From Phycisphaerales bacterium (GTDB taxonomy: Bacteria > Planctomycetota > Phycisphaerae > WQYP01): 64,000 bases of DNA. The notes under the pieces were generated by a model. That model was given only the letters and a program-made list of their open reading frames with translations. It had not been told where the DNA came from and ran no database searches. Of the stretch, positions 21,352 to 64,000 are shown piece by piece; positions within the stretch are counted from its first letter, which is position 1; each line of letters begins with the position of its first letter. A program made the position numbers and the translations under genes. The stretch lies in the NCBI GenBank assembly GCA_009781185.1, contig WQYP01000005.1:1-64000 (forward strand). The letters are read 5' to 3'.

Positions 21352-23103
21352 TCATACGTCAACGATCCTGAGGGTGCCGTCCGTTTCGAGGATGAACATG
21401 GTGGGGCGAAGCCTGGTGGTGGCCTTCACCTTCGCCAAATCCGATTCCAGCTTGGTGACGTCCGCTTCCATCTGGGCTTCGCTAGGCTCGGCGGACTGAC
21501 GGTGGGCCGGGGGACTGGCGACGGGATCGTGCGGTTTGAGAAGTGGGAAGAGCACCACGTCGCGAATCGATTGGCGATTGGTCAGGAGCATGGCGAGTCG
21601 GTCGATGCCGATGCCGAGTCCTCCGGCGGGGGGCATGCCGTGGCGGAGGGCGTTGATGTAGTCGTCGTCCATGCGGGCCATGGATTCTTCGGCGGGGAGG
21701 CCGGCGAGTTGGCGTGTGAAGGTTTCTTGTTGGATGACGGGGTCGTTGAGCTCGGTGTAGGCGTTGGCGAGTTCCATGCCGGCGATGTAAAGTTCGAAGC
21801 GCTCGGCGATGTGCGGAGAGCCTGTCTTCCGTTTGGTCAGCGGACAGAGCGCCGCCGGGTAGTCGTAGAGGAAGATCGGGCGGTCGGATTTCTCGAGTTC
21901 GGGTTCGGCGAGTTGTTCGAAGAGTTCGCCGACGAGGACGTCGTGGTCTTTTTTGGCGGCGTTTTGGAGGCCGCGGTCGGTGGCGATGCGGAGCACGGCG
22001 GCTTTGTCTTGCATGTCGATGCCGACATGCTTATGGAAAAGGTCCGCGTAGCTGACGCGATCGAACGGCGGCGTGTAGTCGATGATGCGATCGCCGTATT
22101 GGAGGTGCAGGGGATGATTATCAGAGCCGCGACCGTAAGGGAGCGACTGACTTTCCTGATGTCTTGCCGCACTGTCGCTCCCTGACGGTCGCGGCTCTGA
22201 TGGGAGTTTGCCCAATGATGCGAGTCGTTCCTTGACCAGGCAAACGAGGAGGGATTCGGTGAGTTCCATCATGCCGGCGAGGTCGGAATAGGCTTGATAG
22301 CACTCGAGCATGGTGAATTCGGGGTTGTGTGTGGTGTCGATGCCTTCGTTGCGGAAGTTGCGGTTGATGTCGAAGACGCGTTCCATGCCGCCGACGAGGA
22401 GGCGCTTGAGGTAAAGCTCCGGGCTGATGCGGAGGAAGAGGTCGATGTCGAGGGCGTTGTGGTGAGTGATGAATGGGCGTGCGGCGGCGCCGCCGGCGAT
22501 GGATTGGAGGAGTGGGGTTTCGACTTCGATATACTGCCGCTGCTTGAGGAAATCGCGGACGGAGTCGATCATCTTCGAGCGGAAGAGGAAGACGTCCATG
22601 GAATCGGGGTTGGCGAAGAGATCGACGTAGCGTTGTCGGTAGCGGAGTTCGGTGTCGGAGAGGCCGTGGAATTTGTCGGGGGGGGGGAGGAGTGCTTTGG
22701 CGAGGAGTCCGAAGCCGTTGGCCCAGATGGTGATTTCTTCGGTTTTGGTGTGTCCGACTTTTCCTTCGAACCAAGCGATGTCGCCGAGCTCGAGGAGTTT
22801 AGCCTGAGGCCAGCGGTCGGGGAAGTTTTGTTTGGCCAAGCCGATCTGGATGCGGGCGGAAGAGTCTTGGATGGTCAGGAAGATGAGTTTGCCGATGTCG
22901 CGGTAGAGGACGATTCGGCCTGCGACTTTGGCGGAGTCTTGGCCGTCGTGAGGGGTGATGGCGGGGCCTTTGTGCAGGGCGCGAGCCTGGGCGGCGGAGA
23001 GGAGGCCGTCGGTACGCTGGCCGTAGGGATCGATGCCCAAGGCGGTCCACTTCTGGAGCTTGGCGAGGCGATCCTTGTATTGAGGATTGTCGGAAGTGGT
23101 CAT
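21352..23103 (-). CDS. lysS: Lysine--tRNA ligase (class II) with an internal repeat-derived insert and a C-terminal extension
   Basis: OB-fold N-terminal domain, class II motifs ('FRNEGID','ELANAYTELNDP','GLGIGIDRL'). ATG at 23103 ('MTTSDNPQYKDRLAKL'). Confidence 0.9.
   Translation of the reverse strand: MTTSDNPQYKDRLAKLQKWTALGIDPYGQRTDGLLSAAQARALHKGPAITPHDGQDSAKVAGRIVLYRDIGKLIFLTIQDSSARIQIGLAKQNFPDRWPQAKLLELGDIAWFEGKVGHTKTEEITIWANGFGLLAKALLPPPDKFHGLSDTELRYRQRYVDLFANPDSMDVFLFRSKMIDSVRDFLKQRQYIEVETPLLQSIAGGAAARPFITHHNALDIDLFLRISPELYLKRLLVGGMERVFDINRNFRNEGIDTTHNPEFTMLECYQAYSDLAGMMELTESLLVCLVKERLASLGKLPSEPRPSGSDSAARHQESQSLPYGRGSDNHPLHLQYGDRIIDYTPPFDRVSYADLFHKHVGIDMQDKAAVLRIATDRGLQNAAKKDHDVLVGELFEQLAEPELEKSDRPIFLYDYPAALCPLTKRKTGSPHIAERFELYIAGMELANAYTELNDPVIQQETFTRQLAGLPAEESMARMDDDYINALRHGMPPAGGLGIGIDRLAMLLTNRQSIRDVVLFPLLKPHDPVASPPAHRQSAEPSEAQMEADVTKLESDLAKVKATTRLRPTMFILETDGTLRIVDV
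22121..22200. repeat. Family A palindromic element (tcagagccgcgaccgtaagggagcgac ... gtcgctccctgacggtcgcggctctga), in frame in lysS
   Basis: 27 nt arms with a 26 nt loop. The arms are identical to those of the copies at 47101 and 48508. Confidence 0.95.
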
Positions 23104-23231
23104 GGCAGTCCTGTTTTGGATGAGGAACAAACGCGGAGAATCATTGTAGGGCATTCGAGCCGCAATCGTAAGATTGCGCTATTGTAACCGCAATCTGGGG
23201 GGGCATGGCACTTTAGGCGGGCTATCTGACT

Positions 23232-27501: not shown

Positions 27502-30500
27502 TTACCTGGTAGTTGACGTCGAGATTTTCGCGTCCGCGGACTGGATGCCGCCCAAAGTTGACGAGATTGCACGGACGATAAAGGTATATTTCGTTGAGGG
27601 TGTCAAGCCTGGGATCGTTACGGGGAGTTCGGTGTAGTTGCCGGACCAGACTTCTGTTTCCGTGTTGCCGTCGAGCCGGAATACCTGGTAGCTGGTGGTT
27701 TCCGGGAACTTGGATGCGGCCCAGGTCAACGTCACCGAATTCGCCGAACTCGTGGCTTTGACGTTCGTGACGGCAGTGTAAGTTTGCGTTTTTGCGTTGA
27801 CGTTCACGGCGGCGGCTTGCATTCCGTTGAAACCTGTCGCCACAACAAAGAACGTGTAAGACATGCCGGGATATAATCCGGGGATCGTGACCGTATTGCC
27901 GGTGACGTACTCATCAACGCCAAGTGCGATGCAGATGATCTCGTACTGGGCGTTGTTGGCGATGGTTTTCCAGGTGAGCGTGACGGTCGAGAGCGTGGAA
28001 CTGCTCTTGATGCCCTTGGCTTTCGTCGGGGCATCGCAGGTGATGTTATTGTTAGACAGAGCCGTGCAGCCGGAGAGATCCAGAGACGTCAACCATTTGT
28101 TGCCGGAACAATTAAGGGTTTGCAGAGCCGTGCAGGCGGAAACGTTTAGGGACTTCAATTGGTTATTGGAGCAATTGAGAGTTTGCAGAGCCGTGCAGGC
28201 GGAAACGTTTAGGGACTTCAATTTATTGTTAGAGCAATTGAGGTTTTGCAGAGCCGTGTAGCCGGAGACGTTCAGGGATGTCAATCTGTTGCCGGAGCAA
28301 GTGAGAGTCTGCAGAGTCGTGCTGGCGGAGACATTCAAAGACTTCAATTTGTTGCCGGAGCAAGTGAGGTTTTGCAGAGCCGTGCAGGCGGAGGCGTTCA
28401 GGGACGATAATTTATTGTTGGAGCAAGTGAGGATTTGCAGAGCCGCGCAGGCGGAAAGGTTCAGGGACGATAATTTGTTGTTGGAGCAATTGAGGTTTTG
28501 CAGAGCCGTGCCGCGGGAGATATTCAGGGACTTCAATTGGTTGCTGTTGCAGGAGAGCAGTAGCAGAGCCGTGCAGGTGGAGGCGTTGAGGGACTTCAAT
28601 CGGTTGCTGGAGCAAGTGAGGATTTGTAGAGCCGTGCATTTGGAGATGTTCAGGGATGTCAATCGGTTGTTGTTGCAAACGAGTTGTTGGAGAGCCGTGC
28701 AGCCGGAGGCATTGAGGGACTTCAATCTGCTGTTGTAGGAGCAACTGAGGATTTGCAGAGCCGTGCGGCCGGAGACGTTCAGGGATTTCAAATAGCTGTT
28801 GTGAGAGCAATTGAGCGCTGTCAATGCCGTGCAATTGGAGACGTTCAGGGATTTCAACAGGTTGTAGCTGCAATCGAGAGATTCCAGAGCTGTGCAGCGG
28901 GAGACGTTCAGGGACTTCAAGGGGTTGTTGTAGCAAGCGAGCGATTGCAGAGCCGTGCAGCGGGAGACGTTCAGGGACTTTAATTGGTCGTTGGAGCAAT
29001 CGAGTTCTTGGAGGGCCGTGCATCCGGAGACGTTCAAGGAGGTGAATTGGCTGTTGTTGCCGCAATCGAGTTCCTGGAGAGCCGTGCAGCCGGAGACGTT
29101 CAGGGATGTCAATTGGTTGTTGTTGTCGCAATTGAGAGATATCAGAGCCGTGCAGCCGGCCAAATTAAGTGAACCACTGAGAGGCCTGGTAAACGGGCCG
29201 CTTGAACTGCTGTTAGTTGCATCGATGCTTTTGATTTTCAGTTCGTCGTTGACTACTGTCCATATGACCATATCCTCTGTGAGTCCGTTTTTGGCGATGG
29301 CGGTGGTGTATTTCGCCCAGTCGTAGGCGTTGTAGGGTGCTACCCCTGTCGTCGCACTGACGGTGTCCGAATACGGCGAGTCGCTGTAGTCGCCCGTTCC
29401 GATCGCCATGACGCAGACGTCATAGGTCGTTCCCACCTTCAAGTCGTCAAAATCAAAAGTGAGCGTTGTGCCGTCCGTCACCGTTTTCGTTTTTGTGCCC
29501 ACTTGAATCACGTAGCCGGAAGCGCCGGGCACGGCATCCCAGCTGACGGTCAGTGTGACGGCGTCCTTGGCGGTTGCCGTAACGCCTGTTGGAGCGGCGA
29601 GCGTCGATGCCAGGATCGTGACCTCTGTTGTTTGCAGCGTCAATTCCGGAAACGTCGCATTGGTCATCGTGCAGTAGATGACGTCATCCGTATGGAGACC
29701 GTCGAATACGAATTGGCCGTTGGTTTCCGTGTAATTGTCTGGGGAAACCGTCGTCCCGTCGGCGTAATACCATGTGTACGTAGTCGGCACTCCGCCGATC
29801 ATGGACTCTGTGGAAAGGTCTAACATCGCATCGCGAGCAAGCGATGATACGATGGAAATATCGCTTTGCGGGCTGTAAGTGTTGCTGGTCAGAGGCAGCG
29901 TTGAAAAAGTCAATTGGTTGTTGGAGCAGTCGAGAGTTTGCAGAGCTGTGAAGCCGGAGAGGTTCAGGGACGTTAATTGGTTGGTGGAGCAGTTGAGCGA
30001 TTGCAGGGCCGTGCAGTCGGAGAGGTCTAGGGATGTCAATTGGTTGGTGGAGCAATCGAGAGTTTGCAGGGCCGTGCAGTCGGAGAGGTTCAGGGACGCC
30101 AAGCTGTTGAAGCTGCAATCGAGAGAAGAGAGCTCCGTGCAACCGGACAAGTCGAGGGTACCGTTGAGACCGGCGTCGCTGGCGATGACCTGGGTGAGTC
30201 GCATTTCGCTATTGATTTGCGTCCATGTGACCATGTCCGCAGTGAGTCCGTTGTTGTCAACGGCGGTGGAGTATTTCGCCCAGTCATCGGCGTTATAGCC
30301 ATCAGGGGCAGGGTCAGCGGCGACGTCGGCGGCAGTGGCGGCGGGAACGACTGCAGCCTGATCCTGAGGAGCGATGAGCGCAACGGAGGTTGCGTGATTG
30401 TCGGGAACCGCAAGTTTTGGCAATAACGGACTGGCCGAGAGCATTGTCCGGTTATCGAGAGATTCCAAAATATGCCGGGAATTGTGGGTGGGTCTGGTTT

Positions 30501-30537
30501 TGCCGGTTTTCTGGAACATGCTCATTCTCCAACTCAT
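27502..30537 (-). CDS. Large leucine-rich-repeat / fibronectin-III surface protein
   Basis: 1011 aa. About 20 LRR units of 22-23 aa ('LKSLNVSACTALQTLNCSNNQ') in two blocks. Three FN3-like modules ('VTLTVSWDAVPGASGY','VTLTWKTIANNAQYEI','VTLTWAASKFPETTSYQVF'). Confidence 0.85.
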   Translation of the reverse strand: MSWRMSMFQKTGKTRPTHNSRHILESLDNRTMLSASPLLPKLAVPDNHATSVALIAPQDQAAVVPAATAADVAADPAPDGYNADDWAKYSTAVDNNGLTADMVTWTQINSEMRLTQVIASDAGLNGTLDLSGCTELSSLDCSFNSLASLNLSDCTALQTLDCSTNQLTSLDLSDCTALQSLNCSTNQLTSLNLSGFTALQTLDCSNNQLTFSTLPLTSNTYSPQSDISIVSSLARDAMLDLSTESMIGGVPTTYTWYYADGTTVSPDNYTETNGQFVFDGLHTDDVIYCTMTNATFPELTLQTTEVTILASTLAAPTGVTATAKDAVTLTVSWDAVPGASGYVIQVGTKTKTVTDGTTLTFDFDDLKVGTTYDVCVMAIGTGDYSDSPYSDTVSATTGVAPYNAYDWAKYTTAIAKNGLTEDMVIWTVVNDELKIKSIDATNSSSSGPFTRPLSGSLNLAGCTALISLNCDNNNQLTSLNVSGCTALQELDCGNNSQFTSLNVSGCTALQELDCSNDQLKSLNVSRCTALQSLACYNNPLKSLNVSRCTALESLDCSYNLLKSLNVSNCTALTALNCSHNSYLKSLNVSGRTALQILSCSYNSRLKSLNASGCTALQQLVCNNNRLTSLNISKCTALQILTCSSNRLKSLNASTCTALLLLSCNSNQLKSLNISRGTALQNLNCSNNKLSSLNLSACAALQILTCSNNKLSSLNASACTALQNLTCSGNKLKSLNVSASTTLQTLTCSGNRLTSLNVSGYTALQNLNCSNNKLKSLNVSACTALQTLNCSNNQLKSLNVSACTALQTLNCSGNKWLTSLDLSGCTALSNNNITCDAPTKAKGIKSSSTLSTVTLTWKTIANNAQYEIICIALGVDEYVTGNTVTIPGLYPGMSYTFFVVATGFNGMQAAAVNVNAKTQTYTAVTNVKATSSANSVTLTWAASKFPETTSYQVFRLDGNTETEVWSGNYTELPVTIPGLTPSTKYTFIVRAISSTLGGIQSADAKISTSTTR
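28054..29175 (-). repeat. Tandem ~69 bp coding repeats (LRR block 2, ~16 units)
   Basis: Recurrent 'ttgcagagccgtgcaggcgga..cgttcagggacttcaa' periodicity. Confidence 0.9.
29902..30165 (-). repeat. Tandem ~69 bp coding repeats (LRR block 1, ~4 units)
   Basis: Same unit type as block 2. Confidence 0.85.
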
Positions 30538-30610: not shown

Positions 30611-30685
30611 AAACGCTCCCTGACGGTCGCGCCTCGGATTGCCCCTTACATTTGACCATCCGAGACGCGACTGTAAGGGAGCATT
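30611..30685. repeat. Family A-related hairpin with the arm order swapped
   Basis: 'aaacgctccctgacggtcgcgcctcgg' ... 'ccgagacgcgactgtaagggagc'. Followed by 'gagcttacgctcgcggctctga' (30700-30722). Confidence 0.7.
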
Positions 30686-30734
30686 TTTAGCTCACGGGAC
30701 GAGCTTACGCTCGCGGCTCTGATGGCGGACGGCG

Positions 30735-31121
30735 TTAGGCGTGGAGTTCCTTCACGCCCTTCTTGCCGGCAACGGTTTTGCGTGGGCCCTTGCGGGTACG
30801 GGCGTTGGAGCGTGTGCGTTGGCCGCGGGTCGGCAGGCCGCGGCGGTGGCGGCTGCCACGGTAACTTTGGATGTCTTTTAATCGCTGAATGTTTTGCTGC
30901 ACCTGGCGGCGAAGGGCGCCTTCGACGACGTAACTGCGGTCGATAATGTTCACGATGCGGCCGATCTCTTCTTCGTTGAGAGCTTTGGCTTTTTTGTTGG
31001 GGTCGATGTTCGCTTCGGTCAGGATGGCCATGGCGTTCATCGGACCGATACCGAAGATGTAACGCAGACTGATGCGAATCTGCTTCTCGGGGGGAATGTC
31101 AATACCGGAAATACGGGGCAT
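30735..31121 (-). CDS. rpsM: 30S ribosomal protein S13
   Basis: '[26 protein letters not shown]'. Confidence 0.95.
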
Positions 31122-31194: not shown

Positions 31195-31280
31195 AAGAAG
31201 CCAGTAGCCAGAAGCCAGAAGCCAGAAGAATCAATGGAAGCCGTAGCTTCTGGCTACTGGCTTCTGGCTTCTGGCTTCTT
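31195..31280. repeat. Heptamer-arm palindrome (gaagcca type)
   Basis: 'aagaagccagtagccagaagccagaagccagaag' (31195-31228) versus 'cttctggctactggcttctggcttctggcttctt' (31247-31280). The right end touches the rpmJ stop codon. Confidence 0.9.
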
Positions 31281-32572: not shown

Positions 32573-32576
32573 GGAT

Positions 32577-32665
32577 CGAAGCCAGAAGCTAGAAGCCAGA
32601 AGCCAGAAGTGAGAAACTGCCGAGACCAAAACCTTCTGGCTACTGGCTTCTGGCTTCTGGCTTCG
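32577..32665. repeat. Heptamer-arm palindrome (gaagcca type)
   Basis: 'cgaagccagaagctagaagccagaagccagaag' versus 'cttctggctactggcttctggcttctggcttcg'. Confidence 0.9.
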
Positions 32666-32678
32666 AGGTTGGCAAGTC

Positions 32679-34258: not shown

Positions 34259-34417
34259 GAAGAAGCCAGAAGCCAGAAGTTAGAAGCTAGAAGGCTCCAG
34301 CTTTGTGGCTTATTCGAGATCCCCAACTTCCGATTCCCAACTTCCAACTTCCGACGACGAACTTCGAACTTCGAGCTTTAGGCTTTAAGCTTCTGGCTTC
34401 TGGCTTCTGGCTTCTTC
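34259..34417. repeat. Large heptamer-arm palindrome whose right arm runs into the rplO 3' end
   Basis: 'gaagaagccagaagccagaagttagaagctagaagg' (34259-34294) versus 'ctttaggctttaagcttctggcttctggcttctggcttcttc' (34376-34417). The loop carries 'ccaacttcc' and 'gaacttcga' units. Confidence 0.85.
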
Positions 34418-34964: not shown

Positions 34965-35000
34965 CCTTCTGGCTTCTGGCTTCTGGCTTCTGGCTTCTTC
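34965..35000. repeat. 'tggcttc' heptamer array (single arm)
   Basis: 'ccttctggcttctggcttctggcttctggcttcttc', between rplO and rpsE. Confidence 0.85.
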
Positions 35001-46685: not shown

Positions 46686-47100
46686 CAGGTCGGGTAATGT
46701 GGCGGAACAGGCTTGACAAAGCCCCCCGCGATTGATCGCGGAGGGAGCGGAACGCGGAGAAAATATTCCAACTTCGTTTCATGGCTGAGTTTATGTCAAT
46801 CTTGCCAGAAAGTGTCCGTGCGTAACCGCGCACACGGCAATACGCTGTATGTTCGATATACCACAAGTTTCCAAAAAAACAAGGACTTTTTTATGTTTTT
46901 TGGAAGGGGAGGCGTGACATGGTTTGTACACCCAAGTCGCGTTCGTACGGGTCGCGACGCCGCAAGCGGTTGCGGGGATCTTCCACACAAGTCATGTCGG
47001 TTTTTGCTCCGCCAGCCAAAGCTCCGCATTGCCATGCGGGGCTCTGTCACCCCGCAAAGCGGGGTCTACGTGCTCTGTCTCAACCCTCCGCAAGCGATGA

Positions 47101-47181
47101 TCAGAGCCGCGACCGTAAGGGAGCGACAGGCGGTATTTTCGCATGGTCACACGGGTCGCTCCCTGACGGTCGCGGCTCTGA
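47101..47181. repeat. Family A palindromic element (intergenic)
   Basis: Same 81 bp sequence as 48508-48588, including the loop 'aggcggtattttcgcatggtcacacgg', by eye. Confidence 0.95.
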
Positions 47182-47232
47182 TAGAGGATAGAGACAGAGC
47201 AGGGTCTACGTGCATTTCATGTCACGTGCCTT

Positions 47233-48279
47233 TTATCGGTAGCTGTTTGCGTCTGGTTCCTGAACGGTGGAGAGGAGTTTATCGATAACGGCGTCGGTGT
47301 CGACGCCTTCGGCATCGGCGTTGAAGTTGGTGATGATGCGGTGTCGTAGGACGGGTTTGGCCATGGCTTGGATATCGTCGGTGCTGACGTTGAGTCGGCC
47401 GTGGGTGATGGCACGGGCTTTGGCGCCCAGGACGAGGTATTGTGCGGCGCGTGGGCCGGCGCCCCAGGTGAGCCAATTATTGATGAAGTCGGGGGTGCCG
47501 GGCTCGTTGGGGCGTGTTGCGCGGGCGAGGCTGACGGCGTAATCGACGACGTGGTCCGAGACGGGGACTTTTCGTACGATCCGTTGTACGGCCAAAATGT
47601 CGCTGGCGGTGAGTACCGGCAGCGGGTCTGTTGGGATGTCGCTGGTGGTGTTTTTGACGATGGAGCGTTCGTCCTCGCGGCTGGGATAGCCGACTTTGAC
47701 CATGAACATGAATCGATCTAACTGTGCTTCGGGGAGCGGGTAGGTGCCTTCCTGTTCGACGGGGTTTTGGGTTGCCAGTACGAAGAAGGGGGGTTCGAGG
47801 GGATAGGTTTGGCCGCTGGCGGTGACCTGGGATTCCTGCATGGCCTGGAGCAGGGCGGCCTGGGTTTTTGGGGGGGTTCGGTTGATTTCGTCGGCGAGGA
47901 GCATATTGGAGAAGATGGGGCCTTTGACGAAGTTGAAGACGCGTCGGCCGGTTTGGGTGTCTTCCTGGATGATGTCGGTGCCGGTGATGTCGCTGGGCAT
48001 GAGGTCGGGTGTGAACTGGATGCGATTGAATTTGAGGGAGAGGACTTTGGCGAGTGTGCTGATGATGAGAGTTTTGGCGAGGCCTGGGACGCCGACGAGG
48101 AGGCAGTGTCCGCGTGAGAACATGGCGATGAGGAGGTAGTCGATGACTTCGGTTTGGCCGACGATGACTTTGCGGATTTCGTGGAGCAGCGATTCGCGAG
48201 CGGCTTTCATTTTTTCGACGGCGGCCATGTCGGAGGAACCGTCGGCGTGGGAGGCTGCGGGGGGGGAAATTGGGACCAT
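47233..48279 (-). CDS. MoxR-family AAA+ ATPase
   Basis: '[14 protein letters not shown]' (Walker A), '[23 protein letters not shown]' (Walker B and sensor). Confidence 0.9.
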
Positions 48280-48507: not shown

Positions 48508-48588
48508 TCAGAGCCGCGACCGTAAGGGAGCGACAGGCGGTATTTTCGCATGGTCACACGGGTCGCTCCCTGACGGTCGCGGCTCTGA
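48508..48588. repeat. Family A palindromic element (intergenic)
   Basis: Direct duplicate of 47101-47181. The adjoining 48589-48635 segment ('ttatccggggcaatcgtctgattggccataaaaaatggccacaccc') recurs inverted at 63881-63922. Confidence 0.95.
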
Positions 48589-48677: not shown

Positions 48678-49706
48678 ATGCATATTCCGGATGGACTTTT
48701 GGATGTGAAGACGGCGGTGGCGATGGGGGTGCTCTCGGCGACAGGGCTGGGGGTGGCGTTGCGGCATGTGCGATTGCATCTGCCGGCGAAACGGGTGCCG
48801 CTGCTGGGACTGTCGGCGGCGTTTGTGTTTGCGGCACAGATGCTGAATTTTCCGGTGTTGCCGGGGGTGAGCGGGCATTTGATCGGAGGGATGCTGACGG
48901 CGGCGCTGCTGGGGCCCAGTGCGGCGGTGGTGGTGATATCGGCGGTGCTGATTGTGCAGTGTTTTTTGCTTGCTGATGGAGGGGTTCTGGCGCTGGGGGC
49001 GAATATTTTTAACATGGCGCTGGTGGGGAGTGCGGGCGGATGGGTGGTGTATTATTTGGTGAGTCGGGCGGTGAAGGGGTTGTTCGGGCGTGTGCTGGCG
49101 GCGACGTTCGCGTCGTGGGTGGCGGTGGTGGTGGCGGCGGTGGCGTGTGCGGGGGCGCTGGCGACGTCGGGGACGGCGAGTTGGTCAGTGTTGCTACCGA
49201 TGATGACGGGGGTGCACATGCTCATCGGCGTGGGTGAGGGGGTGATCACGGCGATGGTGCTGACGTTTATCGCCAAGACGCGGCCGGAGATGTGGGGCGA
49301 TGCGGCGGCGGCGAAGAGAAGCCAGAAGCCAGAAGCCAGAAGCCAAGAGATGGGGGGCGGGCAAACGGTGAATCCAACAGGAACGGAGCGGTGGGGGGCG
49401 GTGATTGTGTTGGGGTTGCTGATTTGTGTGGGGTTGGCGTTGTTCGTGGGGCCGTTTGCGTGCGGGTGGGATGATGGATTGGAGGTGACGGTTCAACAGA
49501 AGGGCGTGCATGTGTCTGAGGCGGCGGAGCATCTGATCAAGGTGCCGATGCCGGACTACAAGATGCCGGGGCTGGGAGACGGCAGAGTGGCGACGGGGGT
49601 GGCGGGAGCGGTGGGGACGGTGGTGGTCTTTGGACTGGCGTGGGTGCTGGCGCGGTCGCTGGTGAGGAAGATGAAACCGGCGGTAGATGTGGGGGGGAGT
49701 GAGTGA
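48678..49706 (+). CDS. cbiM: ECF cobalt/nickel transporter substrate component CbiM fused to a PDGLE-type C-terminal domain
   Basis: 'MHIPDGLLD' start and CbiM TM helices. C-terminal 'ACGWDDGLEVT' between two TM helices. Confidence 0.8.
   Translation: MHIPDGLLDVKTAVAMGVLSATGLGVALRHVRLHLPAKRVPLLGLSAAFVFAAQMLNFPVLPGVSGHLIGGMLTAALLGPSAAVVVISAVLIVQCFLLADGGVLALGANIFNMALVGSAGGWVVYYLVSRAVKGLFGRVLAATFASWVAVVVAAVACAGALATSGTASWSVLLPMMTGVHMLIGVGEGVITAMVLTFIAKTRPEMWGDAAAAKRSQKPEARSQEMGGGQTVNPTGTERWGAVIVLGLLICVGLALFVGPFACGWDDGLEVTVQQKGVHVSEAAEHLIKVPMPDYKMPGLGDGRVATGVAGAVGTVVVFGLAWVLARSLVRKMKPAVDVGGSE
49314..49349. repeat. 'gaagcca' heptamer array inside cbiM
   Basis: 'aagagaagccagaagccagaagccagaagccaagag', translated as 'KRSQKPEARSQE'. 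Confidence 0.9.
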
Positions 49707-49707
49707 G

Positions 49708-50457
49708 ATGCGGGCGGAATATCTGGATCGATACAGCCGATTGAGCAGTCCGGTGCATCGGCTTTGGACGGGTGTGAAATTGTTGGCGGCGGTGGCGGTG
49801 GTGGTGGTGGTGGTGTCGATGCCGCGGAATTTTTGGGGTGGGTGGGCGGGATTGGCGGCGGTGGCGGGGTTTCTGGTAGTGGTGGCGGCGATGAGCGGGA
49901 TTCCGTGGGGGTTTTTGCTGCGGCGGATGCTGTGGCTGGAGCCGCTAGCGATTGGCGTGGCGTTATTGAGCTTGTTGCAGGTGGGTGGGTGGCAGGTGTT
50001 TTTGTGGCTGATGGCGCGGAGCAGTTTGTGTCTGCTGACGATGCTGCTTTTGTCGAACACGGCGCCGTATTCGGAGCTTTTGCGGGTGATGCGTCGGGTG
50101 AAGGTGCCGACGATGCTGGTGACGACATTGGCGTTGATGTATCGGTATTTGTTTGTGATGATGGATGAGGCGGGGCGGATAAAGCGGGCGCGGATGAGTC
50201 GGACGTTTTCGGAGAGGGGGGGGGGGAAATCACGCCGTTGGCGGACGGCGGCGACGGTGGTGAGCCAGTTGTTCATCCGAGTGAGCGAACGATCGGAGCG
50301 GATATTCGCGGCAATGTGTGCGCGGGGATGGGGAGACGGTCTGAGCCGCGACCGTAAGGGAGCGACCCGTTCTAGCGCTCTGTTATCGCACGGTCGCTCC
50401 CTTACGGTCGCGGCTCAGATCGTCAAAGACAATAGCTCTGGGAACGAGGGAAGATAA
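49708..50457 (+). CDS. cbiQ: ECF transporter transmembrane (T) component CbiQ
   Basis: 'MRAEYLDRYSRLSSPVHRL' from the ATG at 49708, 2 nt after the cbiM stop. '..AMCARGW' lies near the native C-terminus. The stop TAA overlaps the cbiO ATG. Confidence 0.8.
   Translation: MRAEYLDRYSRLSSPVHRLWTGVKLLAAVAVVVVVVSMPRNFWGGWAGLAAVAGFLVVVAAMSGIPWGFLLRRMLWLEPLAIGVALLSLLQVGGWQVFLWLMARSSLCLLTMLLLSNTAPYSELLRVMRRVKVPTMLVTTLALMYRYLFVMMDEAGRIKRARMSRTFSERGGGKSRRWRTAATVVSQLFIRVSERSERIFAAMCARGWGDGLSRDRKGATRSSALLSHGRSLTVAAQIVKDNSSGNEGR
50340..50419. repeat. Family A palindromic element forming the 3' end of cbiQ
   Basis: 'tctgagccgcgaccgtaagggagcgac...gtcgctcccttacggtcgcggctcaga'. The stem position is A-T paired here. 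Confidence 0.9.
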
Positions 50458-51209
50458 TGACCGTGGCGTTGGAAGTTCGGGATCTCAAATATCGGTATCC
50501 GGATGGGACCGAAGCGCTGCGTGGGGTGACGTTTTCGCTGGAGGGCAGCGAACGGGTGGGGTTGATCGGGCCGAACGGGGCGGGGAAGAGTACGCTGTTG
50601 TTGCATTTGAATGGGCTGTTGCCGGAGGAATCGGGGAAGGGGGAGGCAGCGGTGTTTGTGGATGGGATGGCGGCGGTGGGGAAGCATTTGCCGGAGGTAC
50701 GGCGGCGGGTGGGACTGCTGTTTCAAGATGCCAACGATCAGCTTTTTTGTCCGACGGTGTTTGAGGATGTGGCGTTTGGGCCGATGCAACTGGGACTCAG
50801 CGAACAGGCAATGCGAGAGCGGGTGAAAGAGGCGCTCGAGAAGGTGGGGATGGCCGGTTATGAAGGGCGGCTGCCGCACCATTTGAGCAGCGGGGAGAAG
50901 CGTCGGGTCTGTTTGGCGGGGGTGCTGGCGTGCGAGCCGTCGATTCTGGTTTTGGATGAGCCGACGAGCAGTTTGGATCCGAAAGGGCGGCGGGAATTGA
51001 AGGAGCTGTTGCGTGGGATTGCGCTGCCGCAGTTGATCGCGACGCATGATCTGGAGTTGGTGGTGGAGCTGTGCGAGCGGGTGCTGGTGCTGGATAAGGG
51101 AACAATCGTGGCGGCCGGAGCGACGGTGGACGTGCTGAATGATGAGGCGTTGATGATGCGGCACGGACTGGAACGGCCGCACATTCTGCGGCATATGCAT
51201 CCGCATTGA
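50457..51209 (+). CDS. cbiO: ECF/cobalt transporter ATP-binding protein CbiO
   Basis: 'GPNGAGKSTLL', 'LSSGEKRRVCLAGVLA', 'LVLDEPTSSLD'. Confidence 0.9.
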   Translation: MTVALEVRDLKYRYPDGTEALRGVTFSLEGSERVGLIGPNGAGKSTLLLHLNGLLPEESGKGEAAVFVDGMAAVGKHLPEVRRRVGLLFQDANDQLFCPTVFEDVAFGPMQLGLSEQAMRERVKEALEKVGMAGYEGRLPHHLSSGEKRRVCLAGVLACEPSILVLDEPTSSLDPKGRRELKELLRGIALPQLIATHDLELVVELCERVLVLDKGTIVAAGATVDVLNDEALMMRHGLERPHILRHMHPH

Positions 51210-51211
51210 AA

Positions 51212-51427
51212 TTTGGTACCGCGACCGTAGGGAGCGTGGGGGAAAGTTCGAAACTCGAAATTCAAATCAAATTCCAAATTCAAAGTTCGAAGCTCGAAAC
51301 AGCCTGGGGGCGAATGGATGGTGTAGGCGGTGTTTCGAACTTTGAACATTCGAATTTGGAATTTGTTTCGAATTTCGAATTTCGAGTTTCGAATTTCTAA
51401 ACGCTCCCTTACGGTCGCGGTACCAAA
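51212..51427. repeat. Composite nested palindrome: family A-type arms enclosing a 'ttcgaa'-unit palindrome
   Basis: 'tttggtaccgcgaccgtagggagcg' (51212-51236) and 'cgctcccttacggtcgcggtaccaaa' (51402-51427) flank an inverted homolog of 5957-6110. Confidence 0.85.
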
Positions 51428-52242
51428 TGCTCATGACAGAGGCCGAGTTTGGCAGCGTAGGTGGCGAGATCAGGCGGAAGCGGGGTGCGGAAATGAACCC
51501 ATTGATGGGTGGCAGGATGCTTGAAGCCCAGGTGCGCAGCGTGCAGACACAGACGCGGAGGAGGAGGGTAATTCTGATTTTCGATTTTCGATTTTCGATT
51601 TTCGATTTCTGAATGTGGCACGGAGTAAATGTCGTCGCCGAGGACTTGGCAGTGGATGAAGGTCATGTGGGCGCGGATCTGGTGGAGGCGACCGGTTTTG
51701 ATCGCGACGTTCACGAGGGCGGCGGGAGGTTTGTTTTCAGGCGTTTGCGAGAGGACTTTGTAGGCGGAGATGGCTTCCTGGCCTTGGCGGGAGATGACGA
51801 CTTTTTTGATGCTGGCACCTTCTCGTTTGGCGTCGGGGTTGGGGACTTCGATTTCTTTGAGGCGGGCTTGGATGACGCCTTGTTTCGGGTGCGGGATGCC
51901 GGCGGTGAGGGCGAAATATTCCTTGTCGACGCGGCGGGCTTCGAAGTCGCGGCGGAGTTGGTCGTAGGCGTTAGGGGTTTTGGCGATCACGAGAAGGCCG
52001 GAGGTTTCTTTATCGAGCCGATGGAGCAGACCGAAGTCGCGACGTTGGCCGAGGTTGTGAAGCAGCTTGGCGATAAGGCCGTCGTGAAGGGCGAAGACAC
52101 CGTTGAGAAGCGAGTCGAAGGCGTGGCCTTTGCCGGGCTGAGTGACGGTACCGGCCGGCTTGTTGATGATGAGCAGATCGTTGTCTTCATGCAGGACGGG
52201 AACGAGAACAGCAGGATTGGGTTTGATGGCGAAGTCAGGCAT
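51409..52242 (-). CDS. RluA-family pseudouridine synthase
   Basis: 'LHRLDKETSGLLVIAKT', 'GRLHQIRAHM'. ATG at 52242 ('MPDFAIKPNP'). Confidence 0.85.
   Translation of the reverse strand: MPDFAIKPNPAVLVPVLHEDNDLLIINKPAGTVTQPGKGHAFDSLLNGVFALHDGLIAKLLHNLGQRRDFGLLHRLDKETSGLLVIAKTPNAYDQLRRDFEARRVDKEYFALTAGIPHPKQGVIQARLKEIEVPNPDAKREGASIKKVVISRQGQEAISAYKVLSQTPENKPPAALVNVAIKTGRLHQIRAHMTFIHCQVLGDDIYSVPHSEIENRKSKIENQNYPPPPRLCLHAAHLGFKHPATHQWVHFRTPLPPDLATYAAKLGLCHEHLVPRP
51576..51610. repeat. (gattttc)x5 tandem heptamer inside the RluA-family CDS
   Basis: 'gattttcgattttcgattttcgattttcgatttct', translated on the minus strand as 'SEIENRKSKIENQ'. Confidence 0.9.
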
Positions 52243-52278
52243 TGCACACTTCGGACGCAAGTTGGAGACGAGAAAACA

Positions 52279-52338
52279 TCAGAGCCGCAATCGTAAGATT
52301 GCGGAGCGATAACCGCAATCTCACGATTGCGGCTCTGA
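52279..52338. repeat. Family A variant with 'ccgcaatcgtaagattgcgg' arms
   Basis: 'tcagagccgcaatcgtaagattgcgg agcgataa ccgcaatctcacgattgcggctctga'. Related units at 7361-7400, 23157-23200, 60975-61000 and 63250-63283. Confidence 0.85.
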
Positions 52339-52366
52339 TGGTTTGCACGTCTATGGTGACCGGATT

Positions 52367-53461
52367 TTAGTTGCCATCGGAGTGGCCCCAGCGGAAATGG
52401 CGGGCTTCGAGCTGGGTGATGAGTTGATCGGTGGTGGGAGAGGTAGCGAGGAGGTCGGCGAGGATTTTTTCGGCGGCTTGGTAGTCGGCGAGACCGGTGT
52501 CGTCGCCGGTGTGGTAGATAAGCGTGTCGGTTTGGGCGAGGCGGGCGGCGAGGAGTTGGAGGATGGTCATGAGTTGGCGGTCGCCGCCGTAGACGCCGCA
52601 GCCCCAAAAGCCGGTGTGGATGGTGATTTTTGGGAGAGCATCAGAGCCGCGACCGTCAGGGAGCGACCCCTGAGTTACCGCTTCACGGTCGCTCCCTGAC
52701 GATTGCGGCTCTGATGATTGTATTTTTGCGGCGGTGAAGGCGGTGGTGGCAGTAGTGAGGATGTAGCGAATTTGGTTGGCGGTGTAGAAGCCTTTGCCGT
52801 TAGCGGGGGCCTCGATGGCGATGATGTTGGAGAAGGTGGGTGGGTCGATGGTGGTGATCGCGCAGCGGACGACGTCGGCGGAGGCTTGGGCAAAGGCATT
52901 GCCGTAAAGGCCGCGGAGCTTGATGCGACGCTGGACGTTTTGAATGAGGATCGGTGTGGGCTCGCCGGACTCGACGGTAAGGGTGGAAAGGCGATCGTGC
53001 AGGAGGGCTTCGCGGAGGTGGGCGAGGATGGGATGCTCGGCGACCTGCAGTTCATCCTGGGCGAGCAGAGGGGAGGCATAAAACAAAAAGAGATCGCTGT
53101 GGGCAAAGTTGAGGTGCCACTCGATGATGTTTTTATTTTTATTTTTATTTTTCGGTGTGTCATAGGTGAAGAAATCGGGACGGGCTTCGGCGGCAGGAAT
53201 TTTGGCGGGGAGCGTTTGCGGGAGAGGCTGGGCGGGCCAGCGGGAATAGGTGAGAGTGCCGGCGTGGGCAGAGTTTTTCGGGCAGGCGAGGGCGTAGGTG
53301 AGTTGCTTGTTGGAATCTTGGAAAGTGAGGGGGAAGTCTTTGGCGAGTGTGGCGGCGTCGTAGGATTTGGTGGCGAGCGGTTTCATGACCGGCTCCGTAG
53401 TCGCAGCGGTAAACATCGCTGCGAAAAGAACAATCGCTAGAAGTTTGCAAATAACAGTCAT
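52367..53461 (-). CDS. Poly(ADP-ribose) glycohydrolase (PARG)-like protein with an N-terminal signal peptide
   Basis: 'HTGFWGCGVYGGDRQLMTILQLLAA' versus eukaryotic PARG 'TGNWGCGAFGGD..LK.L.Q.LAA' (recalled from memory). 'LNFAHSD...LLAQDELQVAEHP' versus 'DFANK.LGGG...VQEEIRF..NPE'. Signal peptide 'MTVICKLLAIVLFAAMFTAA'. Confidence 0.6.
   Translation of the reverse strand: MTVICKLLAIVLFAAMFTAATTEPVMKPLATKSYDAATLAKDFPLTFQDSNKQLTYALACPKNSAHAGTLTYSRWPAQPLPQTLPAKIPAAEARPDFFTYDTPKNKNKNKNIIEWHLNFAHSDLFLFYASPLLAQDELQVAEHPILAHLREALLHDRLSTLTVESGEPTPILIQNVQRRIKLRGLYGNAFAQASADVVRCAITTIDPPTFSNIIAIEAPANGKGFYTANQIRYILTTATTAFTAAKIQSSEPQSSGSDREAVTQGSLPDGRGSDALPKITIHTGFWGCGVYGGDRQLMTILQLLAARLAQTDTLIYHTGDDTGLADYQAAEKILADLLATSPTTDQLITQLEARHFRWGHSDGN
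52641..52714. repeat. Family A palindromic element, in frame in the PARG-like gene
   Basis: 'tcagagccgcgaccgtcagggagcgac...gtcgctccctgacgattgcggctctga'. The stem position is C-G paired here. Confidence 0.9.
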
Positions 53462-63818: not shown

Positions 63819-63922
63819 AGAATTGAGGCGTACCTCGAAAAACGCCCACGCTTAGGAGAGGGAGGAGGGGGGGGTTGGGCGTGGCCATTTTTTATGGCCA
63901 ATCAGACGATTGCCCCGGAAAA

Positions 63923-64000
63923 TCAGAGCCGCGACCGTCAGGGAGCGACAGGCGTTATTTCCGCATTGTCGCACGGATCGCTCCCTGACGGTCGCGGCTC
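63923..64000. repeat. Family A palindromic element (cut by the window end)
   Basis: 'tcagagccgcgaccgtcagggagcgac...atcgctccctgacggtcgcggctc'. Together with 63881-63922 it forms an inverted copy of 48508-48635. Confidence 0.85.

Follow-up and report, generated by a model that had tools for sequence, protein, structure and literature searches.

In-frame REP-like doublets inside a PARG-like gene and lysS of a Phycisphaerales bacterium

How does a strong DNA palindrome come to be read in frame inside two unrelated enzymes of one bacterium, and in how many ways can a gene accommodate it? The question is raised by a 64,000-nucleotide stretch of a Phycisphaerales genome (contig WQYP01000005.1, positions 1 to 64,000; here called the window), where a 76-nt palindrome at 52640..52715 lies entirely within a PARG-like (macro-domain) open reading frame (ORF; 52367..53461, minus strand, 364 aa) and a related copy at 22120..22201 lies within lysS, the class II lysyl-tRNA synthetase (LysRS) gene (21352..23154, minus strand, 600 aa). 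An earlier, sequence-only reading of this DNA had proposed that the two copies share a frame, and that selection tolerates only one combination of orientation and frame in genes; the first proposal holds and the second is not supported. We think it quite likely that the copies are REPIN-like doublets of class 3 REP (repetitive extragenic palindromic) sequences which are filtered by selection in genes, that several frames are usable, and that the encoded peptide is a by-product of the DNA.

The PARG and lysS inserts

The PARG copy (52641-52714, tcagagccgcgaccgtcagggagcgacc..ggtcgctccctgacgattgcggctctga) consists of two REP arms of the class 3 type, at 52642-52667 and 52688-52713, and a short spacer. 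Its palindrome arms of about 28-30 nt (ATCAGAGCCGCGACCGTCAGGGAGCGAC and its complement) are 93% complementary around a loop of about 18-20 nt, and as RNA the doublet folds at -60.1 kcal/mol (z -11.2). The host ORF matches Pfam PARG_cat_C at 2.7e-13 and PDB PARG chains as well, and a protein lookup returned no identical record for the exact protein. Read on the minus strand the doublet is SEPQSSGSDREAVTQGSLPDGRGSD, that is SEPQSSGSD..SLPDGRGSD, residues 250-274 of the product. These residues are an insertion, missing in 13 of the 14 aligned homologues (those 13 are 44-60% identical). A 76%-identical orthologue (P0002) has the insert, reading SEPRPSGSDGAAANL-SPPDGRGSD, and on its contig (L111) the doublet stands at identical junctions on both sides (AAAATACAATCATC and GATGCTCTCCC). 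The L111 loop is 3 nt shorter, exactly one codon, so that the frame is preserved, and CCGT has become CCAT in both arms. Between the two genes dN/dS is 0.24 at a dS of 0.56, from which it follows that the host is under purifying selection and that the insertion is old. In an AlphaFold2 model of the window protein (mean predicted local distance difference test, pLDDT, of 83), residues 251-277 are coil between a helix (228-250) and a strand (278-284), with pLDDT below 50 at residues 256-271. The picture that the model gives is of a tolerated surface loop, predicted with low confidence, directly ahead of the GFWGCG motif.

The lysS doublet, with a GTAA loop in its left arm and a GTCA loop in its right arm, reads on the minus strand as SEPRPSGSDSAARHQESQSLPYGRGSD, or SEPRPSGSD..SLPYGRGSD (residues 319-345), and its arm frames equal those of the PARG copy. 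The ORF matches Pfam tRNA-synt_2 at 1.4e-87 and looks like a class II synthetase gene of the usual sort. Its alignment with PDB 3a74 is split, with query residues 23-311 on chain residues 6-296 and then 350-540 on 300-491, which places ~35 extra residues exactly at the element. A second copy inside a coding sequence, at 52640-52715 and in the same frame as in lysS, is thus confirmed as the sequence-only reading had described it (SEPQSSGSD..SLPDGRGSD vs SEPRPSGSD..SLPYGRGSD).

Identity of the palindrome

At least nine copies lie within the 64 kb, which cover a single contig of this genome. A 14-mer from the arm is present 12 times in the window, where shuffled sequence would give 0.53, and the folding energies of the doublet hairpins are -55 to -66 kcal/mol (z-scores between -10 and -12). 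The arm can be written CAGAGCCGCGACCGT[A/C]AGGGAGCGA: a CnGA foot is followed by a CCGCGACC-GTNA-GGGAGCG(G) stem-loop of 7 to 8 stem pairs including a tandem G.A/A.G mismatch, and the two arms pair with each other into a hairpin of about 28 bp. The foot is CAGA in the window copies and CTGA in a copy at the end of cbiQ; across the fetched loci 167 of 218 arms carry a CnGA foot, which was outside the search pattern. The inner stem pairs co-vary (CC/GG, GC/GC, CG/CG, AATC/GATT).

This arm has been catalogued before. Quentin et al. 2018 (BMC Genomics 19:475, PMC6006769) describe a small "class 3" of HuH-Y1 enzymes (TnpA_Y1), found mainly in Planctomycetes, Acidobacteria and Proteobacteria, and report ~600 REP copies in Solibacter usitatus. 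Among the REPs next to class 3 genes, entries of their Table S1 include CAGAGCCGCGACCGTCAGGGAGCGATCG from S. usitatus and CCGAGCCGCGACCGTAAGGGAGCGGA from Legionella pneumophila, with the fold .....((((..((....))..)))). The window arm is identical or nearly so to these entries, and one window arm on its own takes the fold ......(((..((....))..))).. (-9 kcal/mol), a structure as in that table. With the arm a Table S1 entry, the same fold, the CnGA foot and the co-varying stem, the element is identified as an inverted doublet of a known, class 3-type REP-like hairpin, and hence as REPIN-like.

Beyond the window, the 21-mer GCCGCGACCGTMAGGGAGCGA occurs in at least 110 DNA stretches (one genome per species), mostly metagenome-assembled genomes (MAGs) of Planctomycetota and Acidobacteriota; some, among the matches listed, are labelled Verrucomicrobiota, Gammaproteobacteria or other. 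In these loci an arm may stand alone or belong to a direct array or an inverted pair, with spacers that vary, and 67 inverted doublets were counted. A plasmid collection gave one match, in Legionella adelaidensis and without a transposase nearby, and a viral contig collection (IMG/VR) gave one contig, L119. A loop-specific pattern matched only 4 metagenome contigs. An all-against-all BLAST of the ORFs from the loci found no protein family recurring beside the arms, and Rfam gave no match at gathering thresholds anywhere in the window.

Several observations on the family stand apart from this argument. The exact 21-mer is found, among the matches listed, in MAGs labelled Desulfobacteraceae, Gammaproteobacteria, Anaerolineales, Binataceae, Sumerlaeota, Actinomycetes and Limisphaerales (loci L003, L006, L009, L024, L030, L039, L081 and L098). 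Its range may therefore be wider than the three phyla reported in 2018, or contigs may be mis-binned. Direct arrays, which differ from the inverted doublets of the window, include five arms spaced 39-83 nt in a Terriglobia MAG (L022, 5583-5835) and pairs in L014, L034, L061, L084 and L097. One metagenome contig (L113) carries a copy of the window REP subfamily at its end; IMG/VR lists as a viral genome a contig (L119) of equal length, 24,387 nt, and the two are taken to be one and the same. Finally, the right-hand arm of the PARG copy (52689-52711) is a CAATCG variant, with Watson-Crick pairs in place of the tandem G.A mismatch; the same variant is found in a doublet at 52278-52339, 300 nt away, and in the REP upstream of lysS (23157-23180). 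That CAATCG is common to these three sites suggests local gene conversion between REP variants.

Reading frames and the selection filter

Can such a doublet be read in more than one way? Translated along its own direction, an arm yields EPRP[S/*]GS (with a stop in the GTAA variant), AATVRER and SRDR[Q/K]GA; the opposite strand gives SLP[D/Y]GRGS, RSLTVAA and VAP[*/L]RSRL*, the last always closed by a TGA in the foot. The lysS copy has 3 of 6 frames open, the PARG copy 2 of 6 and the cbiQ copy 1 of 6. With so few open frames per copy, it is not surprising that lysS and PARG share one. As had been proposed, the GTAAGG arm variant reads CCG TAA, a stop, in the lysS/PARG frame, and a rluA-like ORF (51409..52260, minus strand) ends on exactly such a codon: its terminus ..VPRP* (GTA CCG CGA CCG TAA) takes its stop from the right arm of a composite element described below. 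The arm is G+C-rich; a single frame, that of the right-hand arm, is closed in every case and EPRP[S/*]GS in the GTAA variant alone, which leaves several frames usable.

The cbiQ gene uses another of them. Its ORF (49687..50457, plus strand) is ~40 codons longer, by the element plus 12 codons, and its TAA stop overlaps the cbiO ATG. The 3' end reads through a doublet at 50339..50420 (CTGA foot, both loops GTAA, -66.3 kcal/mol) as LSRDRKGATRSSALLSHGRSLTVAAQ (LSRDRKGAT..RSLTVAAQ), a frame other than that of lysS and PARG. The Pfam CbiQ match ends at residue 217; close CbiQ homologues have 203 aa and end in ..ARGWxx, so this copy lies at the old stop codon and forms a C-terminal extension, not an internal insert. 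The exact boundaries of the insertion are unreadable in the comparison with the closest relative (L118, 82% protein identity), which has a different cbiQ-cbiO junction.

A census of the other loci took ORFs of at least 250 aa that contain an arm flanked on both sides by 40 codons or more, 30 of which were checked with Pfam; two direct arms in alanyl-tRNA synthetase (AlaRS) were counted as one event and a second arm in DNA polymerase I (PolA) as a separate one. The census rests on DNA loci, and all verified internal cases come from Planctomycetota-labelled contigs. Arms were verified in UvrA (L055, EPRPSGSD), in PolA (L069, EPRPSGSE and a degenerate SRAR arm), in AlaRS (L095, two direct EPRPSGS arms), in a radical SAM enzyme (L102, EPRPSGSV..SLPDGRGS), in a Ser/Thr kinase of a Planctomycetaceae member (L107, the doublet QSRDRQGAI..LLPDDRGSD) and in a HemN-like enzyme (L036, QSRDRKGAI). 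Set against PknB, the kinase has 22 cleanly inserted residues in its activation loop, between PknB residues 166 and 167. With lysS and PARG included, the tally is about 6 independent events for EPRPSGS, 3 for SRDR (cbiQ besides) and 0 for AATVRER. This small sample points to a possible preference for the EPRPSGS frame but not to exclusivity.

Two further groups were left uncounted: 17 long ORFs through arms in other loci, which have no Pfam match and many of which resemble antisense shadows, and 3 ORFs in which the arm precedes the domain that Pfam matches. At the protein level, a 52-aa tandem query of element peptides gave 8 candidate homologous proteins, none scoring, the query being below the method's reach; HMMER with the 35-aa lysS segment against 1.84 billion representatives gave 0 matches at E up to 0.001, short peptides again being below reach. 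It may also be observed that the in-gene hosts (UvrA, DNA polymerase I, AlaRS, LysRS and a pseudouridine synthase; L055, L069, L095 and L107) belong to the functional classes listed by Di Nocera et al. 2013. These shared classes could mean that copies are easier to detect in long conserved genes, or could have a mechanistic cause.

Selection does appear to act on the copies that land in genes. Real ORFs are overlapped by only 3 of the 9 window copies, though ~89% of the window is coding (P about 1e-4), and all three copy-bearing ORFs are intact and full-length. No verified in-gene copy is read in a stop-containing frame. Over all 67 doublets the core-to-core length modulo 3 is evenly spread (27, 19 and 21); the remainder 2, which makes the foot-to-foot length a multiple of three, is found in 4 of the 5 verified in-gene doublets vs 21 of 67 overall. 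The foot-to-foot lengths of these in-gene doublets are 78, 72 or 69, 78 and 60 nt, and intergenic window copies measure 79 nt. Depletion from ORFs, the predominance of doublets divisible by three and the absence of closed frames support a filter on gene-landing copies.

Orientation is harder to read. Three intergenic copies of one subfamily share an orientation, and by its GTAA/GTCA asymmetry the lysS copy has it too; the PARG and cbiQ copies have symmetric arms, and their loops have diverged too far for an orientation to be assigned. The suggestion that the two coding copies have the same orientation finds slight support, in a loop alignment score of 0 for the same orientation vs -7 for the reverse complement. 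The related suggestion that both present the stop-free arm first is borne out in lysS, where the first-read arm is the TCA variant and the TAA-variant arm, read from its opposite strand, gives CCT TAC. In PARG both arms are TCA variants, so "stop-free arm first" is automatic there and silent on orientation.

Explanations and known systems

How the copies came to be where they are can be put as follows. Copies would have spread through the genome, presumably by single-strand cutting and joining by an HuH-Y1 enzyme, and most insertions into genes would have been lost. A copy would survive in a gene if its length is a multiple of three, if the host frame runs across it without a stop and if it falls at an end of the protein or in a surface loop that permits it. 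The hydrophilic, Pro/Gly/Ser-rich SEPRPSGSD..SLP(D/Y)GRGSD of PARG and lysS would then form an extra disordered loop, a by-product of the DNA element and not a designed protein module. This explanation stands on the REP identity and doublet structure of the element, its status as an insertion in intact hosts, the age of the PARG insert and the multiple frames in use. The earlier proposal of random insertion followed by purifying selection survives in part, given the ORF depletion, the intact hosts and the PARG dN/dS of 0.24; its predicted outcome, a single surviving combination, is not supported.

Some points weigh against the explanation. A motif scan of the window and 118 loci found no HuH..Y gene, so the link to the class 3 enzyme rests on the published association. 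Class 3 HuH-Y1 genes are single-copy. The kinase doublet (L107) is an exception to the rule of three, its foot-to-foot length not being a multiple of it. Verified in-gene events number only about 10, all on Planctomycetota-labelled contigs. That the inserts are translated and that the added loop is neutral we infer. As to mobility, movement of these REPs by the class 3 enzyme is without experimental proof, and PMC6006769 itself calls for further experiments.

Could the doublets be more than tolerated passengers? The paired CCGT-to-CCAT change and arms that are still about 93% complementary after a dS of 0.56 are what one might expect if the palindrome were long kept in essential genes; one frame, which yields a disordered Pro/Gly/Ser loop, would seem to be favoured as well. 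We regard this as unlikely, if worth entertaining. If true, it would imply selection or gene conversion acting on a DNA or RNA hairpin in coding sequence, as for instance at an mRNA-level control point or in a substrate in continued use by the HuH-Y1 enzyme. It could also indicate a recurrent bias towards genes for tRNA synthetases and for DNA repair or replication.

A further reading takes the PARG copies of the window and L111 for two independent insertions at a hotspot and not one ancestral insertion. Loops that differ at most positions and arms that differ at 7 would be in keeping with two events. The junctions AAAATACAATCATC and GATGCTCTCCC are identical, however, the frame is the same, the weak loop similarity has the same orientation, and the divergence fits the gene dS of 0.56; we consider two independent hits distinctly unlikely.

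The strict form of the selection argument, in which random insertion is followed by survival of one orientation-plus-frame only (SEPRPSGSD..SLPxGRGSD), draws on the two internal coding copies of the window, both in this frame, and on the census, in which EPRPSGS is the commonest arm frame among verified internal copies (UvrA, PolA, AlaRS, radical SAM) and AATVRER was never seen. Yet other frames are used by cbiQ (SRDRKGAT..RSLTVAA), by the L107 kinase (SRDRQGA..LPDDRGSD) and by the L036 HemN-like enzyme, the PARG arm variants are identical and leave orientation unreadable, and copies in which 2 to 3 frames are open should often share one. This form is improbable. The claim that "only one orientation and frame" is tolerated is likewise unsupported: the SRDR frame of cbiQ, L107 and L036 contradicts it, as does the CCG TAA end of the rluA-like gene.

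One might also ask whether several enzymes have recruited the peptide as a functional module, with the DNA palindrome secondary. The PARG insert has been kept over a dS of about 0.56, and between window and L111 its arm-encoded residues are more alike than its loop residues. But dN/dS within the element is 0.24 (25 codons), no lower than in the rest of the gene, and arm conservation follows the DNA palindrome, as in the L111 change of CCGT to CCAT in both arms. The same DNA lies mostly between genes and in all frames, the hosts (LysRS, PARG, UvrA, PolA, AlaRS, kinase) are unrelated, and the modelled insert is a low-confidence loop. We find a recruited module very improbable.

A conventional miniature inverted-repeat transposable element (MITE), with terminal inverted repeats, a DDE transposase and target-site duplications, would account for the length (76-83 nt), for the 28-nt terminal inverted repeats and for the lack of coding capacity. 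None of six window copies has a flanking direct repeat, however, and this lack of target-site duplication disfavours a classical MITE. Arms also occur singly and in direct arrays, as REPs do, and the arm is identical to a published HuH-Y1-linked REP. We think a MITE highly improbable. That the host genes are pseudogenes, so that in-gene copies merely mark dead genes, has next to no probability: nothing was found in its favour, the ORFs are full-length with complete Pfam domains, lysS is like an ordinary class II synthetase gene, PARG has a dN/dS of 0.24, and the insert differs by exactly one codon between two PARG lineages.

With tolerated, selection-filtered REP doublets as the preferred reading, it is useful to ask what they resemble. 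The REPs of PMC6006769 agree with our elements in arm sequence, CnGA foot, imperfect GTNA-loop hairpin and range (Planctomycetes, Acidobacteria and Proteobacteria including Legionella), and, to judge by at least nine copies in 64 kb, probably in a high number of dispersed copies. They differ in that the paper has single hairpins flanking the enzyme gene and the window has no class 3 gene found in it; we found no description of class 3 inverted doublets or in-frame in-gene copies in the portions of the paper used here. REPINs (Bertels and Rainey 2011, PMC3116915) are two inverted REPs and a spacer forming one long hairpin, non-autonomous, thought to be moved by a single-copy HuH-Y1 enzyme and described as extragenic. 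The window elements are likewise inverted REP pairs with a spacer that form one long hairpin, whereas the classical type has a GTAG-type (GT[AG]G) foot and a class 2 RAYT, where we see a CnGA foot and no RAYT.

The closest precedent for the in-gene copies is that of Di Nocera et al. 2013 (BMC Genomics 14:522, PMC3733652), who describe GTAG/CGTC REPs and dimers in frame in ORFs of Opitutus terrae, Rickettsia and others, encoding 20-30 residues. There, REP ends donate stop codons, and hosts include tRNA synthetases, pseudouridine synthases, UvrA and DNA polymerases. We find LysRS, AlaRS, UvrA and PolA as hosts and an rluA-like gene whose stop comes from an arm. The differences lie in the foot (here CnGA), the stem sequence and the enzyme, class 3 vs their class 2 RAYT. 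The insert here is absent from homologues and lies in a loop of an intact host under purifying selection. In-frame palindromic insertion is an already documented kind of event, now with a different, already catalogued REP family. Rickettsia palindromic elements (RPEs; Ogata et al. 2000, Science) are reportedly the first in-frame palindromic repeats found in functional genes. Like our doublets they are said to be palindromic in-frame inserts that add surface segments compatible with protein function; unlike them they are reportedly longer, A+T-rich and unrelated in sequence, with another host lineage and a moving agent that is not known. The general picture drawn from RPEs and intragenic GTAG/CGTC REPs is unchanged.

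The locus ties an oddity of raw sequence to a described, little-studied class 3 HuH-Y1 REP system. Class 3 REPs form doublets and can persist in frame in Planctomycetota housekeeping genes (LysRS, AlaRS, UvrA, PolA) and in a kinase activation loop, and the PARG orthologue pair is a dated example of a hairpin surviving inside a gene. In practice, shared 9-residue peptides (EPRPSGSD, SLPDGRGS, SRDRQGA, RSLTVAA) in unrelated proteins and in many spurious ORFs can mislead annotation and homology searches.

Other copies and repeats in the window

The window has further copies. An intergenic doublet at 47100..47182, 79 nt from foot to foot, lies 50 nt downstream of the stop codon of a moxR-like gene, and another, also intergenic, at 48508..48588, between the divergent moxR-like and cbiM genes, is identical to it over 81 nt; a third of the same subfamily, at 63922..64000, is cut by the window end. 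An ORF at 46713..47288 would place the copy at 47100 in a gene, in a third frame. We rejected it as non-coding: its GC content is flat at all three codon positions and it has no Pfam match. The variant doublet at 52278..52339, between the PARG-like and rluA-like genes, folds at -51.4 kcal/mol, and its arms are fully Watson-Crick hairpins, CCGCAATC-GTAA-GATTGCGG. A REP of the CAATC/GATTG variant (23155..23200, plus strand) stands directly upstream of the lysS start codon, and degenerate arms (30613..30735) stand upstream of a 1011-aa ORF.

The composite element at 51216..51425 has two REP arms around an A+T-rich, ~160-nt palindrome of the TTCGAAA type. It stands precisely where the convergent cbiO and rluA-like genes end, between their two stop codons, in the layout of a two-way terminator or mRNA-end hairpin.

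The window also shows extreme strand asymmetry. The plus strand is G-rich in every 4-kb block of 1-64000, with a GC skew of up to 0.38, and the majority of genes lie on the C-rich strand. At third codon positions, minus-strand genes have C at 0.52-0.65 and G at 0.10-0.16, and plus-strand genes have G at 0.63-0.69 and C at 0.08-0.11; examples are 47233..48279 (minus), 48678..49706 (plus) and 50457..51209 (plus). A replication-linked orientation bias is known for HuH-Y1 elements. Since the whole window is G-rich on the plus strand, such a bias is here a lead only.

Repeats of other kinds are present as well. Inside the rluA-like ORF, 51576-51608 is a perfect heptanucleotide array, (GATTTTC) x 4.7, reading IENRKSKIENQ; as a change by one unit, up or down, would throw the gene out of frame, it is a possible slipped-strand site. 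A second intergenic repeat type, at 31195-31280, 32576-32666, 34261-34408 and 34966-34998, consists of long palindromes and arrays of the heptamer AGAAGCC/GGCTTCT. The 1011-aa ORF (27502..30537, minus strand) contains ~17 copies of a 63-nt tandem repeat, at 28057-29159 and 29909-30141, and its product is therefore a 21-residue repeat protein.

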